Origin: Eledone cirrhosa
Lineage: Eukaryota
Length of the DNA: 64,000 nt
Direction: 5' to 3'
Assembly (NCBI GenBank): GCA_964016885.1
Contig: OZ024743.1
Span: forward strand, 70,494,001 to 70,558,000
Of this stretch, positions 8,681 to 44,119 are shown piece by piece (position 1 is the stretch's first letter; each line of letters starts with the position of its first letter). Under the pieces are notes generated by a model. That model was given only the letters and a program-made list of their open reading frames with translations. It searched no databases and was not told the origin of the DNA. A program made the translations under genes and the position numbers.

Positions 8681-9599
8681 ACACAAAAGATTAAAAAGTT
8701 AATAATATTGTTTATGATGAAGTTCTTTAGATATGAAAAACGAAAACAAAAAGGAAAATTATAACAAAACTGAAAACCAAAACTGAAAAACAAATAATAA
8801 TTAACTGGACAATTTAAAATAAAACATTATACTCGCTACTGATATTATGTGTTGTTCAATATAATATTCTCAAGTGAGGTTACTGTTAAATTAATTTATA
8901 TTTTTTTTTTTTCATTGAAATCGTTATATACGTTATTTATATTTGAGCAACAAGGATTTTTTTTTTACTATTAATTCATTTCATAATTTCACCAATGAGT
9001 TTTTGTTTTTTTTTCAAATATTTTTAGTTCTTTCGGCATTCACAATAGTCGATTTCAACTTCTTGAATCCTTTTCAATATGCTGAACAGTAAGCAATCTC
9101 CGAGGGAGAATCAACTGTGTTTGTCTATTAATGTAATAAATAATTGTTTCCACTTTTGGCACAAGGCCATCAATTACCCAGTACATTACTGGTACTTTAT
9201 TTTATCGACCCCGTAAGGATGAAAGAGAAAGTTAAATGATATAAGGAAAATGTCCCAGCAAGGTTATTTATCGTTAAATTGATTTATTATTCCTTTTTTT
9301 TTCATTTGAAATGTTATTTACATTATTTATATTCGAGAGTCAAGGACATTTTTTTTATTATAATTCATTTCATAATTTTAACATTTATCTTTACAATGTT
9401 TTCATTCTTTTTGAAATCACATCAACATGCGTGTGTTTATATATATATATATATATATATATATATATATGTGTGTGTGTGTATATATATATATATATAT
9501 ATATATATATATATATATATATATATATATATATATATGTGTGTGTGCGTGTGTGTGTGTATATATATATATATATATATATATATATATGTGTGTGTG

Positions 9600-9927
9600 T
9601 GACACACAAAAACAAGATGGCGTAGGACAGAACAAAGGAGAGGCACAAAACAAAGAGAAGAATCCCCAGTCACTGAAGAGGTCACAGAATATGTGACGAA
9701 AGAACTTTGACAATATATGAACAACCGTCCGGTTGTGGAACCAACCAACCAACCAACTGGAAATTTATAAATTCTTAAATTTATAAATTTAATTTATAAT
9801 AAATTGGAGTGAAAGCAACTGGTACGTGTGTTTCTTATTGGCAACATGACCCTCCCAAAGTATAACAATATCGGTTTCAACACACGTTTTCAGATAAAGA
9901 TTCTTGCTAAACAAATTTAGAAACGAT
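9600..9927 (+). mobile_element. Solo pseudo-LTR of the Nematis-like PLE family seen at 14390-18338
   Basis: Similar to 17105-17290 joined to 18260-18338; bounded by (TA)/(TG) tracts. Confidence 0.85.
9668..9711 (+). ncRNA. Minimal type-I hammerhead ribozyme
   Basis: gtca CTGAAGA g gtcaca-gaata-tgtgac GAAA g-aa-c TT tgac. Confidence 0.8.
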
Positions 9928-10584
9928 ATATATATATATATATATATATATATATATACCGTGGGGTTAAGGAGTTCACTTCACAATCACGTAGTGCTAG
10001 TTTCAGTTCCGCTGCGCAGCACATGTGTCTTCTTATGTAGCCTCGGTTTAGCCGATACCTTGTGTGTTCAACTAAGTAGACGGAAACTGCAGAAACCCGT
10101 CGTAAATATTATTCACACACACACACACACACATACACACACACACACACACACACACACACACACACACACACACACACACACACACAAATACATACAT
10201 CCTCACAGTCTCTACATCTTTGGTTGGATGGCATATTTTAAATGCTGCGCTTTGCAGACAAAATGGTGTGAATAATGTCGCAGATAACAGCCAGAAATAC
10301 CCGCTGCATCAGCTATTCCACCTGATGGGCCTCATTCGTCTATGATCCCACCCCATCCCCACCCCATCCCCACCCCACACATGACCAAAGAATTGACGAA
10401 CGGCAGTGGCATTGAAGATTGGAGGCATTGTGTTTAGAGAAATGTTTTTTTGTACTCATTGACTGATAGACCGCTTCCCCACTCCTTCTCCCCTCCCTCC
10501 CTCCCCGCCTCAAGGGATTTGAACAGTGAACTCTGTAGTACAACTGGTAGTGCTAGCAGCTGTAGCTGTGATTCTGTTAGCACT

Positions 10585-11115
10585 ATTGGTGGTGCTAGTG
10601 GTGGTGATGGTGGGGGTGGGGTGGGGGGGTGGGGTCTTAGTGAAGGTGGTGATGGTGGTGGTGATGGTGCTGGTGGTGGTATTGATGTTGGTGGTGGTGG
10701 TGGTGATGGTGGTGATGGTCTTAGTGGTGGTGGTGGTGGTGGTGATGGTGGTGATGGTGGTAGATGTATTGTTGGTGATGATGGGTGTGATGATGGTGGT
10801 TGTTGTGGGGGAGATGATAGAGATGGTGGTGATGGTTGTGGAGCTTTTATGATGGTGGTAGTGGGGATGAATGTGGTGGTGGATGTGGGTGTTGTGGTGG
10901 TGGTGGGGGTGGCAGCGGTGTTGTTTTTGCTGGTGGTGACTATTTTTATTGAAAGACGAAATCTGCAGTCAAGCGAAAATGGTAAAACACCACCATCACC
11001 ACCACCACCACCAACACCACCGGCAGCATAATTTTCTTTATTCTCATCATCATCATCATTCCCACCGTCACCACCATTCTCACCACCATCATCATCATAA
11101 CAATAATCACCCTCA
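10585..11115. repeat. GGT/GAT and CCA/CAT low-complexity trinucleotide tracts
   Basis: Direct reading. Confidence 0.9.
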
Positions 11116-11435
11116 ACAGCAACTTCCATTCTGTTACTGTTATCAGTGATTCGGCTGCGGCCCTGCTATGCTGCACTTTTCAAGGAATTTACGATATATA
11201 GACCTCAGCAGACATATTGCTGTCTGATACTTAATTTATCGATCTAATATTGTCGAATTGCTAAAGAATAGCTGTAGCTATATTGCAAGTTTTACACACA
11301 CACACACACACACACACATATATATATATATATATATATATATATATATATATATAGTTTTGCGAGGTTTTTTATATGAAATCGTGTGTCGAAACAAATA
11401 TTGTTATACTTGGGGAGGGTCATATTTGTGTAATA

Positions 11436-11624
11436 TTGTTTCTACTTTAGGCACAAGGCCAGCAAATTACCCAGTGCATTACTGGTACTTTATTTTATCG
11501 ACCCCGTAAGGATGAATGGCAAAGTCAACCTCGGCGGGATTTGAACTCAGATCATAAAGGGACGTAACTATGCTGGAAACCATGGCGTCCGACCCTCTAC
11601 CGATACTGCCAATCCACCACCCAA
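11436..11624 (-). mobile_element. Full-length OK-like SINE with TSD, inside PLE pLTR
   Basis: catatttgtgtaatattg duplicated at 11421 and 11625. Confidence 0.9.
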
Positions 11625-11815
11625 CATATTTGTGTAATATTGCCAGAATTAATAACAGAACACACTCACTGTTTGGTTTGGTTGGTTTTCGCTTCTCGCT
11701 TCTGTGTCTTTTATATCGGTAATCTAACTTACTCGGTCCTCAATGTTGCCATTGACTGACCGACGATCGAAAATAATACAGATACAATATAGACACAAAC
11801 ACATAAATATAGTTT

Positions 11816-41483: not shown

Positions 41484-41556
41484 CACTGATGAGCCTGGAA
41501 TTTGGTATATCTCTTCACAAATAATATTGCGAAACGGTTCTATGAAAGACCGTCTG
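41484..41556 (+). ncRNA. Probable hammerhead in a unit between (TA)n tracts
   Basis: ca CTGATGA gc...gc GAAA cggt-tctatgaaag-accg TC tg; short stems I and II. Confidence 0.6.
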
Positions 41557-41919
41557 AGTGATGGTAGTTACCACAATACTGGTTTGTATTTATTTTTCTT
41601 AATTTATTCTTAAATTAAGTCTAGCAAACCCTATTGTCTGTAGTTAGTATTTTTTTTCACCTTAGCGATTTTGGTCCATTACGATTTGAACACATATATA
41701 TATGTGTGTCTGTATTCGTTTTTTCCTTTTTGTTCAGTTATATACGGCTCGGAAAAATCTTTTCCTAGAGCTAATTTACTGTAATGAGACTATTTTGAGT
41801 TTCTAACTCAATACATGCTTTTGATATATATATATATATATATATATATTAAAGATGAATATATATATCTGTGTATATATATAAATGATGAATATATATA
41901 TATATATATGTATATATAT

Positions 41920-43110
41920 AAAAGATGAATATAAAATGAAAGTGCTTTTATAAAGGAATTTATTAGGTATTGACATATGTTTCTGTAACAGACGGAATAC
42001 CTATGTATCGCTGCTTGCGTAATCATATAATATTAGCACGTAATCGATAGCAAATGTATAATCAGTTGTCACTTCTTCAGAGATATTGGATAAATTGGAA
42101 AAAATCATAAAAATCAAAGTATTTATATTAGTTGTAAGAAAGGTAGAGGAGTGGGAACAGTATATGACAGATGGCAATTCAATTTGCTGGTAAACAAGTG
42201 TATAGAAGGTTTTTAATGAGAATACAATGAGTATATGGCTTATTTTATCTAAATAAGAATTTTTGGGAGTGCCTATTTTAATTTATATTTGACCAGTTGA
42301 ACAATGGACAGGGCTGGTGGTTTGGTGTAGTAGTATTAATACATTAATACAGATATAAAGTGTCAAGTAAGGAAGAGAGATTTTCACTGCTACTGTATAA
42401 CAACAATGCTGGTAGCCTGGTGGTATATGCTTTAGGGAATTGAATTGATAAAGCTTATTTTATCTATAGAATTTTATATTAAATGATAAAGAATAGAAGT
42501 GTTGATAGAATTAAAACTAATAGAGAATGTTAATATGTATTTTGACAATCAAACGGAGATGGAGACAGGCGTTCAATCCTGGTAGCGTTTGTAATATGAA
42601 AATGTAGATTTCAAGCGATGATTACAGTATAACGATCGCTCTATTCTGTTATTTAATAAAATATTTTTGGATTTCATAATACAAAATATTTCCATATTAC
42701 ACAATCTACAAAGTTTCTGTCCATGAAAATGCAGGGGCAGCACTATTATATCCCATTTTAGGTTAAATTGTTGGTTATTTTCGCGCAGCTGCCAAGCCTT
42801 GTCTGCGAGGGTTGTTACATAACGCTGGTTTTCATGTTTTATCGAGTAGCGATGTCTATAAAAGCGAGATTTGAAGGAGGTAGCTGTAGACCCCACATAG
42901 TACCACATCTGGGTACCCGATTCGATAGTACATTTGTATATGATGTTGCGTTCAAGACACTGATTATTCAACGGACACATTCCTGGTTGGACACAGTTAC
43001 AGTTATAATTATGCGGTGTTGTAATACCATGGATGGGTTAATGAGGTTGCTTAGGCAGGTCGGGATGTTGTTTGTTGTTTTGTGATGTTATAGCCGATGT
43101 TTTACATGTA
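41920..43110 (-). mobile_element. 3' fragment of the same Naiad-like family as 30119-35191, with undeleted GIY-YIG C-terminus and hammerhead (41972-42080)
   Basis: ORF 42573-42980 retains KLCRLCNME..LLN..CNH; (TA)n flanks. Confidence 0.92.
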
Positions 43111-43160
43111 TATATATATATATATATATATATATATATATATATATATATATATATATA

Positions 43161-43790
43161 TATCACGATAAATTAACGGAGGCATAGGCCCTTGCTATTC
43201 CCTGTAAATAATGTGCCCAAAGGAGAAGAAATCCTGAGCTCTTTAAAATACAATATGTTGAAAAGGTAACACACCAGAGAGAGATATACAGTGCGTTATC
43301 AATAAAACAGGGAAAAAAACCCACCAGTGTATGGAATCTATAACCTATGAAAGGCAGACTATAGACACGATAATTAAAAATATAAATTAAAGCGTAAATA
43401 AATACCTCTATAACTATATAACAGACGTACAAATCCAAAGACACTAATCCAAAGATATGTTTCACCAATAATTTGTTGAAAGAAATGGGTTAGCCTCGGT
43501 TCATCAGCGTGTGTAAGGCTATACATTTCAGACAACACTAAGAGAATTTTAAAATTAACTGTCCAGCTACACGTGGGAGAGAGAAGTCACAGCGTGTTTA
43601 AGGGCAGTGATTCAGTGGCCTCTGACGGACGAACTGCTAGAAAGGGCAGCCCAAAGCCACTCAGAGAAGTGTGCTCAACTAAACAGAGATAGGAAAGACT
43701 GTTATTAGGAGCGAAATATCACGATAAATTAACGGAGGCATAGGCCCTCGCTATTCCCTGTAAATATGCTCTCCCACATCCCTTTATATA
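43161..43790 (-). mobile_element. Non-coding hammerhead unit with ~50-bp terminal direct repeats (period 556 bp)
   Basis: 43161-43210 repeats at 43717-43766; minus 43421-43514: acacacg CTGATGA accg..tggt GAAA catatc..gatttg TA cgtctgt. Confidence 0.75.
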
Positions 43791-44119
43791 TATATATATA
43801 TATATATATATATATATATATATATATATATATATATATATATATATATATATATATATATATATATATATAAAGAGATGATACGCGGTATTGGCAAAGT
43901 TGTTAGAACATTGAATGGAATATTTGTGGTATTCATTCCGACTCATTGTGGTCCCTGATTTCAAATTCCACCGGGTTAATTTTACCTTCCATCCTTTCGA
44001 AGAAGAAATCGGCAGTGTTCAGTCCTGTCAAGGGATAGACTCCGCCAGGTTTAAGATGCCAAGACACGCCATATATATATCAATACGGCACCCCTACGAC
44101 ACCATCAGGATTTCCGAAT

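Follow-up and report, generated by a model that had tools for sequence, protein, structure and literature searches.

The 64,000-nucleotide stretch of Eledone cirrhosa DNA analysed here (GenBank assembly GCA_964016885.1, contig OZ024743.1, positions 70,494,001 to 70,558,000 of the forward strand; hereafter the window) is microsatellite-rich animal DNA, and between about 9.4 and 43.9 kb it holds a cluster of Penelope-like elements (PLEs) most of whose ends lie in or beside (TA)n tracts. This cluster is real and well supported, and largely of a kind already known. We mapped PLE coding remnants across the whole window by tblastn, with 150 fetched homologues as queries, and found them at 12156-13546 (minus), 14801-16905 (minus), 18776-19705 (plus), 26670-27690 (minus), 30820-32574 (minus) with 32559-34490 (plus), and 42576-43034 (minus); the same search found none in the window outside 12-43.1 kb. 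These remnants represent six coding insertions in five families (N2, N1, H1, H2, the inverted twin H3, and H4), interspersed with about 16 non-coding units that resemble PLE pseudo-long terminal repeats (pLTRs), many of them with hammerhead cores. Coding-anchored PLEs occupy 44% of positions 9430-43872, and 67% is covered once the pLTR-like units are added; in the genome of Octopus vulgaris, a supplementary row of PMC13282606 puts PLEs at 6.83%.

The marks of endonuclease-bearing (EN+) PLEs are present: a TERT-related reverse transcriptase (RT) and a GIY-YIG endonuclease share one open reading frame (ORF), with motifs recognised in N1 and H3, and pLTRs, with their hammerhead motifs, occur both directly repeated and inverted. 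The ORF at 14852-16444 has an Octopus vulgaris protein as its best named relative (66% identity), and an ARAGORN search of the window found no tRNA. Sister copies are 89% to 99.6% identical, which shows that insertion has recurred through time. Features between 9.4 and 43.9 kb are listed below, including short interspersed elements (SINEs) with target-site duplications (TSDs); the unassigned beads at 13583-13857, 24040-24184, 24330-24485 and 30012-30120 are left out of the unit counts.

9602-9925, plus: N0, a solo pLTR of the N1 family with a hammerhead core (9669-9711), 92.6% identical to the N1 pLTR; 3' end in TA at 9926-9958
11357-13545, minus: N2, a PLE of the long-insert family, truncated at its 5' end and with TA at either end; 67% amino-acid identity to N1
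11431-11622: SINE with an 18-bp TSD, nested in N2
13905-14380, plus: X2, a pLTR-like unit with a 70-bp fold-back (palindrome 13904-14045) and a relative at 60359-60486; its end joins TA through TAT microhomology
14392-18340, minus: N1, a PLE with RT and C-terminal GIY-YIG, frameshifted after RT3, both outer ends in TA; a 58-bp fold-back (16822-16938) is followed by an inverted pLTR (16939-18340) without its final ~52 nt, and the pLTR copies are 98.3% identical
17294-18259, plus: Helitron (TC...hairpin-CTAG) inside the inverted pLTR of N1, inserted between an A and a T; its junctions rejoin to sister pLTR sequence
18408-18692, minus: X3, a pLTR-like bead with a degenerate hammerhead core and TA on both sides; single copy, limits set by TA only
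18716-21001, plus: H1, a Hydra PLE truncated at 5', where it bears a 33-bp duplication; its 3' end lies in a short, degenerate stretch of TA and has a relative at 58424-58562
21099-21826, unstranded: X5 (an inverted ribozyme-bearing pair, 21099-21435) and X6 (21469-21826), with TA in between
24533-25667, minus: U1, a non-coding pLTR-body-pLTR unit with hammerhead core on the minus strand, direct repeats 91.8% identical, both ends in TA
25688-26192, unstranded: composite copy A, consisting of a U1/W chimera, TA at 25960-26026 (the empty site, 67 bp) and unit B, as aligned to copy B
26347-27664, minus: H2, a Hydra PLE truncated at 5' and carrying frameshifts, with TA at either end
27687-29828, unstranded: W, an inverted pair of ribozyme-bearing pLTRs, arms 95.6% identical, both ends in TA
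29137-29328: SINE with a 14-bp TSD, nested in W
30121-35189, unstranded: H3, a Hydra PLE present as an inverted twin, with a minus-strand left arm (30121-32564) and a plus-strand right copy (32565-35189), arms 99.6% identical
35237-36200, plus: V, a young non-coding unit (inverted piece, pLTR, body, pLTR; 99.5% identity) with a variant hammerhead, both ends in TA
36285-36911, unstranded: composite copy B (the filled site), consisting of unit B, 31 bp of TA, a 68-bp pLTR-like insert (36483-36550), 27 bp of TA and the U1/W chimera
36944-37372, plus: ribozyme-bearing bead with TA on both sides and a hammerhead layout at 37106-37189; single copy
41425-41823, plus: pLTR-like bead with a hammerhead-like core, ends in TA; single copy
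41921-43108, minus: H4, a 5'-truncated PLE of the H3 family (Hydra), both ends in TA, with ATA microhomology at the 5' junction; 89% identical to the H3 3' region
43164-43784, minus: Y, a non-coding unit with a 48-bp direct repeat, itself lying between two TA tracts and probably of PLE origin

PLE ends meet TA tracts more often than SINE ends

An initial annotation of this stretch had proposed that nearly every PLE body or pLTR-like unit between 9.4 and 43.9 kb begins or ends directly in (TA)n, and our counts bear this out. We set element ends by homology breakpoints or tblastn limits, independently of TA, and scored contact when a TA tract of at least 8 bp was no more than 10 bp away. By this measure 9 of 11 coding-PLE ends touch TA, compared with 2 of 22 SINE ends in the same region (Fisher P 6.7e-5), 3 of 48 SINE ends in the whole window and 3.0% of background positions. 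The tabulation of flanks against background and another class of transposable element, run within the window, thus places PLE ends in TA significantly oftener than SINE ends, and does so also with a 3-bp cut-off (6/11 against 2/22, P 0.008) or with tracts of at least 16 bp at the 10-bp cut-off (5/11 against 1/22, P 0.01). The two misses are the 5' end of H1, where TA lies 61 bp off with the 33-bp duplication between, and the left arm of H3, where it is 110 bp off (109 unassigned bp lie between arm and tract). A twelfth coding end (H2 3', 26347) adjoins TA and was omitted because it is defined by TA alone. Non-coding unit ends touch TA in 18 of 21 cases, four of which come from one duplicated composite, are forced by masking of simple sequence repeats (SSRs) and are not independent; when all PLE-like ends are pooled, 27 of 38 touch TA and none touches (CA)n or (GA)n, of which the window holds 43 and 17 tracts.

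Two related claims survive in part. Other elements were said to use other target contexts, which holds for the TSD-flanked SINEs, the L1/Tx1 element and the Helitron, whose (TA)5 at 17296 is its own 5' end, but not for the SINE at 21956-22297, with TA at both ends, or for the RTE tail at ~60725, which adjoins TA. The PLEs were also described as an island: the cluster stands but its edges are not sharp, since merged TA tracts are similarly dense inside (9.3 per 10 kb, 5.4% of bases) and downstream (8.0 per 10 kb, 4.8%), the span of the six coding PLEs within the window is not unusual (P 0.084), and further beads lie at 58.1-60.6 kb. That second cluster (58109-60612) is made up of pLTR pieces with ribozymes, again on TA and some of them related to H1 and X2; one of its units, near 59477-59644, has an end in (CA)n rather than TA.

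Junction anatomy points to TA as a pre-existing target

We favour the view that the TA adjoining PLEs was a target present before insertion rather than an element tail, because TA occurs at 5' ends, internal repeat ends carry little of it, junctions share microhomology with it, and it is found at an empty site. TA adjoins the 5'-truncated ends of N2, H2 and H4, and the internal tandem pLTR ends of V, Y and U1 have just 2-6 nt of TA whereas their outer ends enter long tracts. Sister copies of each family stop at an identical terminal nucleotide, and 3' ends meet TA in a fixed register. Among the eight junctions with a template in the window, five have TA microhomology of at least 3 nt (P 0.0013 by sum, 3e-5 by count), in which the element's own sequence continues for 3-4 nt of TAT or ATA where the tract begins; the H4 value (3) was taken by hand from the printed junction. 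Leaving out N1, whose end may be a tail-less RT start site, the count is 4 of 7 (P 0.009). Within the H4 tract, the final 6-8 bases of the H4 3' end are repeated three times (41824-41920), as if by repeated priming or slippage.

The duplicated cassette provides an internal pair of filled and empty sites, in which copy A has 67 bp of TA where copy B has 31 bp of TA, a 68-bp pLTR-like 3' piece and 27 bp of TA. End counts, microhomology and this pair together support the earlier proposal that PLEs insert into existing (TA)n and leave TA on both sides. They do not extend to its corollary that PLEs might help drive TA expansion, since TA density in the island does not stand above that downstream and the 31+27 bp of TA at the filled site fall short of the 67 bp at the empty one. 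TA tracts beside PLEs are longer than others (median 30 against 17 bp, P 0.043), which could equally reflect longer tracts being better targets. Net TA gain, with fold-back synthesis into a TA primer adding TA and PLEs acting as a source of octopus TA microsatellites, seems unlikely to us.

Insertions form TA-linked chains

We counted 25 insertion events by hand, and in modelling their distribution assumed 8-16 empty loci. The events fall into six TA-linked chains of 1, 7, 9, 3, 3 and 2. When loci are chosen uniformly, the observed clumping is reached in 0 of 100,000 draws, and a split-and-renew (Polya) model, in which each insertion adds a target, is 10^4.8 to 10^6.6 times likelier than uniform choice. 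Self-renewing targets are thus a plausible fit to the clumping, one that is not separable from locus effects combined with block copying.

H1-H4 fit the Hydra clade by their motifs

The initial annotation called some of these elements Naiad-like, and this label is wrong: they are Hydra elements by their C-terminal endonuclease, DKT motif, CxCX5C linker, and lack of CCHH and of Naiad RT motifs. PMC8557442 defines the Hydra clade by a C-terminal endonuclease, DKT, a divergent RT4, a CxCX5C linker and no CCHH, and by this motif definition H1-H4 belong to it. All four have a C-terminal GIY-YIG endonuclease, and none of the Hydra ORFs here has CCHH. The linker CNCxxxxxC (CxCX5C) occurs in H1, H3 and H4, and H2 has FSCxxxxxC, with the first C lost. 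H3 has DKT in place of DKG at residue 48, the other copies being truncated before that position, and a divergent RT4 (FDITMGSNDSA); it has no fingers insertion, RT3-RT4 spacing being 59-62 in the 13 of 30 homologues with both motifs matched. H3 is truncated before the N-terminal RWK region, which reads RW[KR] in 5 of 5 aligned homologues. Mutual identity of just 29-36% separates H1, H2 and H3/H4 into three families. A Pfam search of the Hydra ORFs returned no RT or GIY-YIG family match.

The H elements share with the Hydra clade of PMC8557442, including Hydra-1_Obim of Octopus bimaculoides, a C-terminal GIY-YIG, DKT, FDITMGS, CxCX5C, no CCHH, a C-terminal CxxC and CxH, a hammerhead near the 3' end and insertion into (TA)n, but in a by-eye comparison with the supplement none of the H families here matches Hydra-1_Obim at the C-terminus or 3' end. 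According to the same source nearly every Hydra family uses (TA)n as its insertion site; Hydra-1_Obim and three octopus Naiads are given this preference in the supplement. Naiads (Naiad_Obim, Naiad_Ovul), which share this octopus (TA)n preference and have an insertion in the RT fingers, differ in their N-terminal endonuclease, DKA and lack of a canonical hammerhead, none of which we see here (PMC8557442). Naiad is ruled out by domain order, all PLE ORFs in the window having a C-terminal endonuclease. A six-frame scan for the Naiad motifs DKA, DFxxLYT and GIPMG gave no hit within a PLE, the only two being a GVPMG antisense to the RTE and a lone DKA; with 20 nt of the published 3' end of Naiad_Obim as probe, nothing in the window matched at 3 mismatches.

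The arms of the H3 twin differ at 10 of 2429 sites, and both lack 109 bp of the endonuclease end that H4 has. This same loss in both arms suggests that a defective parent was copied in trans.

A PLE lineage with a long RT3-RT4 insert

The most promising lead at the locus is the lineage of N1 and N2. In this family the RT3-RT4 span is 128 residues (127-130 in the 51 of 120 homologues with both motifs matched), about twice canonical, and the insert is conserved among homologues in the position of the telomerase insertion in fingers domain (IFD). By our own count from Fig. S1 of PMC8557442, the spans there are ~57-60 in canonical PLEs, 84 in one Naiad and 115 in human TERT. At E <= 1e-10 the family has 123 relatives, among them proteins of Octopus vulgaris and of the coral Stylophora. 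The endonuclease linker follows YVDD in 77 of 77 N1-family homologues with both motifs; it reads CIDKKCITC and CTNRKCIIC in N1/N2, with CxxxxC in the GIY-YIG domain, HAKIEH and two conserved His columns.

The label Nematis-like fits the endonuclease of these elements, with its CX2-5CxxC linker, short spacer and CCHH, but not their RT. In the figures of PMC8557442 that we compared, Nematis shares with N1/N2 a C-terminal GIY-YIG, a short CX4CxxC linker near GIY and a CCHH finger (Fig. S2, rows Nematis_Cr/Pp), and differs in an RT3-RT4 span of ~60 in the nematode rows of Fig. S1 (own count) and in motif B, GLAMG as against QxxG(G/A)AIG in N1/N2. Because their span is about twice canonical, we do not file N1/N2 as Nematis, and their traits agree with none of the clade definitions consulted. 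The predicted structure of an Octopus relative of N1 (P0031, pLDDT 82.5) matches TERT best (Z 13.6, rmsd 3.4, 338 residues aligned); in this search with the whole model Tribolium TERT is top, tied with human TERT. Pfam gives a weak RVT_1 match for N1/N2, and a sequence search of the PDB returned distant bacterial RTs only. Our literature searches found no description of a long-insert lineage, with Repbase and most subscription papers outside their coverage and Arkhipova 2006 possibly covering it. We tentatively raise the possibility, which we rate below even, that N1/N2 represent an undescribed clade of C-terminal-endonuclease PLEs; the fuller proposition, that such a clade combines a telomerase-length fingers insertion, (TA)n targeting shared with Hydra and self-renewing chains, is rather unlikely to hold in all its parts. 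If undescribed, this widespread lineage would change the statement that canonical C-terminal-endonuclease PLEs lack the IFD region.

Hammerheads, fold-backs and composite units

Hammerheads here rest on descriptor scans, the strict descriptor giving 6 sites and the others being core motifs with folds. Rfam found no hammerhead in its scan, only SSR-driven microRNA matches below gathering scores, and in the scanned windows of N2, H2 and unit B the two cores were not seen together. Fold-backs occur at 13904-14045, 16822-16938 and 58504-58621 and in the 2.4-kb H3 twin. In the composites (25688-26192 and 36285-36911) two unrelated pLTRs are fused at a 4-nt CATT microhomology and duplicated with the TA tract and neighbouring unit as a cassette. 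Three U1-type copies (24826, 25667, 25959, 36580) end at the same nucleotide, which is 5' by hammerhead orientation and unexpected of random truncation.

Junctions with palindromes, joining of 5' ends through microhomology, and capture between pLTRs have been described already (PMC3846280). From this source and PMC11167929, Adineta vaga Penelope and the anole Poseidon PAc share with the elements here inverted pLTRs, palindromes at inverted junctions, an optional 3' tail, a microhomology-mediated 5' junction and in-trans mobilisation by pLTRs; they differ in having TSDs in ordinary or AT-rich DNA, whereas here both junctions lie in (TA)n. The non-LTR retrozymes, as outlined in bioRxiv 10.64898/2026.07.22.740005, share with U1, V and W their non-coding nature, type I hammerheads and a proposed origin from PLE pLTRs, but form long tandem arrays, while the units in the window stand on TA singly or in partial tandem.

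A proposed model for chain growth and its alternatives

We propose, as the probable explanation, that PLE families of two lineages and their non-autonomous pLTR derivatives insert preferentially into existing (TA)n, with chains growing by renewed targets. Judging from what is known of the family, the GIY-YIG domain would nick (TA)n, and the RT would prime at the nick from the family's fixed 3' start. Synthesis may then truncate, fold back by self-priming or jump template, and the second junction would often be closed by 3-4 nt of TAT or ATA annealing to the TA target. Since each insertion leaves TA on both sides, the locus would keep at least one further target and the chain could lengthen. 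The non-autonomous derivatives would ride on coding PLEs, and some bead-TA-bead cassettes would be copied as blocks. As to whether self-renewing chains occur genome-wide, we lean marginally towards their doing so.

Several observations weigh against this proposal. Three of the eight junctions have microhomology of 0-1 nt, including the U1 5' junction at 0 nt, and the filled/empty pair is unpolarised, so that TA-TA slippage deleting the 68 bp would look identical. The chain counts, and several single-copy beads, are our own reading. Clumping is stronger than even the Polya model predicts (P 0.06 to 0.005 across the range of 8 to 16 empty loci), while 18 merged TA tracts stand apart from the chains and no PLE lies in the longest tracts (23686-24039, 46000-46852), so that some effect of the locus, or copying in blocks, has to be added. 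As for the self-reinforcing hotspot earlier proposed, clumping agrees with what renewal predicts and does not prove it. The anole Poseidon is the one PLE assayed in vitro: its protein cuts ATT, and reverse transcription begins on the RNA at positions that share no homology with the DNA being cut (PMC11167929). Pairing at the 3' junction is hence not required, and target specificity more likely resides in the nuclease or zinc-finger linker, as PMC8557442 proposes, than in RNA-DNA pairing.

The strongest competitor, which we judge less probable than not, yet serious, keeps the TA preference and attributes clustering to a tolerant or accessible region and block duplication instead of target renewal. 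The B-TA-chimera cassette present twice, 10 kb apart, the empty long TA tracts nearby and the shortfall of the Polya model all suit it, as do the accumulation of SINEs and the Helitron, the non-significant span test and the TE hot spots reported for O. vulgaris in PMC13282606; it accounts poorly for the two longest chains (7 and 9 events), where unrelated families of differing ages are TA-joined with almost no unique DNA between, in a region whose SINEs avoid TA. PLEs might also home to the AT-rich ends of resident pLTRs, with TA adjacency secondary, given that most neighbours are other PLE ends and that in vitro the Poseidon protein of the anole cleaves its element at the boundary of ORF and pLTR (PMC11167929). 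We consider such self-targeting unlikely: no PLE was found inside the body or pLTR of another, junctions fall in the intervening TA, and the solo N0 sits in TA without a PLE neighbour.

That the element itself makes (TA)n as an added 3' tail, with no pre-existing target, would explain why the 3' end of every family enters TA in fixed register and why PLE-flanking tracts are longer, but the TA at 5'-truncated ends and at the empty site, and its near absence from internal tandem pLTR ends, make this very unlikely. Least probable of all is an origin of the inverted units and long TA tracts in faulty assembly, through fold-back reads or mis-sized repeats, an idea prompted by the near-identity seen in the H3 arms (99.6%) and in V (99.5%) and by TA runs of up to 207 bp. 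The H3 arms nevertheless differ at those 10 sites and the W arms by 4%, the inverted pLTR of N1 is split by the Helitron, and the same architecture is the published norm for PLEs; TA tract lengths may remain inexact.

PLE insertion into (TA)n, already published for Hydra and Naiad (PMC8557442), will not surprise specialists, and our literature searches on TA-targeting or SSR expansion by PLEs, with Repbase and most subscription papers outside their coverage, found nothing beyond the papers cited. The locus offers a natural experiment: it contains both a filled and an empty site, its TA microhomology can be measured, and several families are joined in long chains. It thereby bears on a question left open in PMC8557442, how PLEs form inverted structures and choose microsatellites.

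Other repeats in the window

Elements we take to be Helitron, L1/Tx1, RTE and SINE carry these labels from characteristic features and Pfam RT hits, the Helitron class from its termini. An L1/Tx1-type element at 4070-6372 lies in a (CTAT/CTAC)n context, and decayed helicase-like coding remnants (Helitron/Pif1 type by eye) with two SINE insertions occupy 6500-8900. The RTE-type long interspersed element at 60725-63905 has a PHD-like finger match; its (GAT)n tail adjoins TA and its 5' end adjoins a pLTR-like 3' piece. At 48862-49603 lies a 31-bp satellite of 24 copies with 93% matches.

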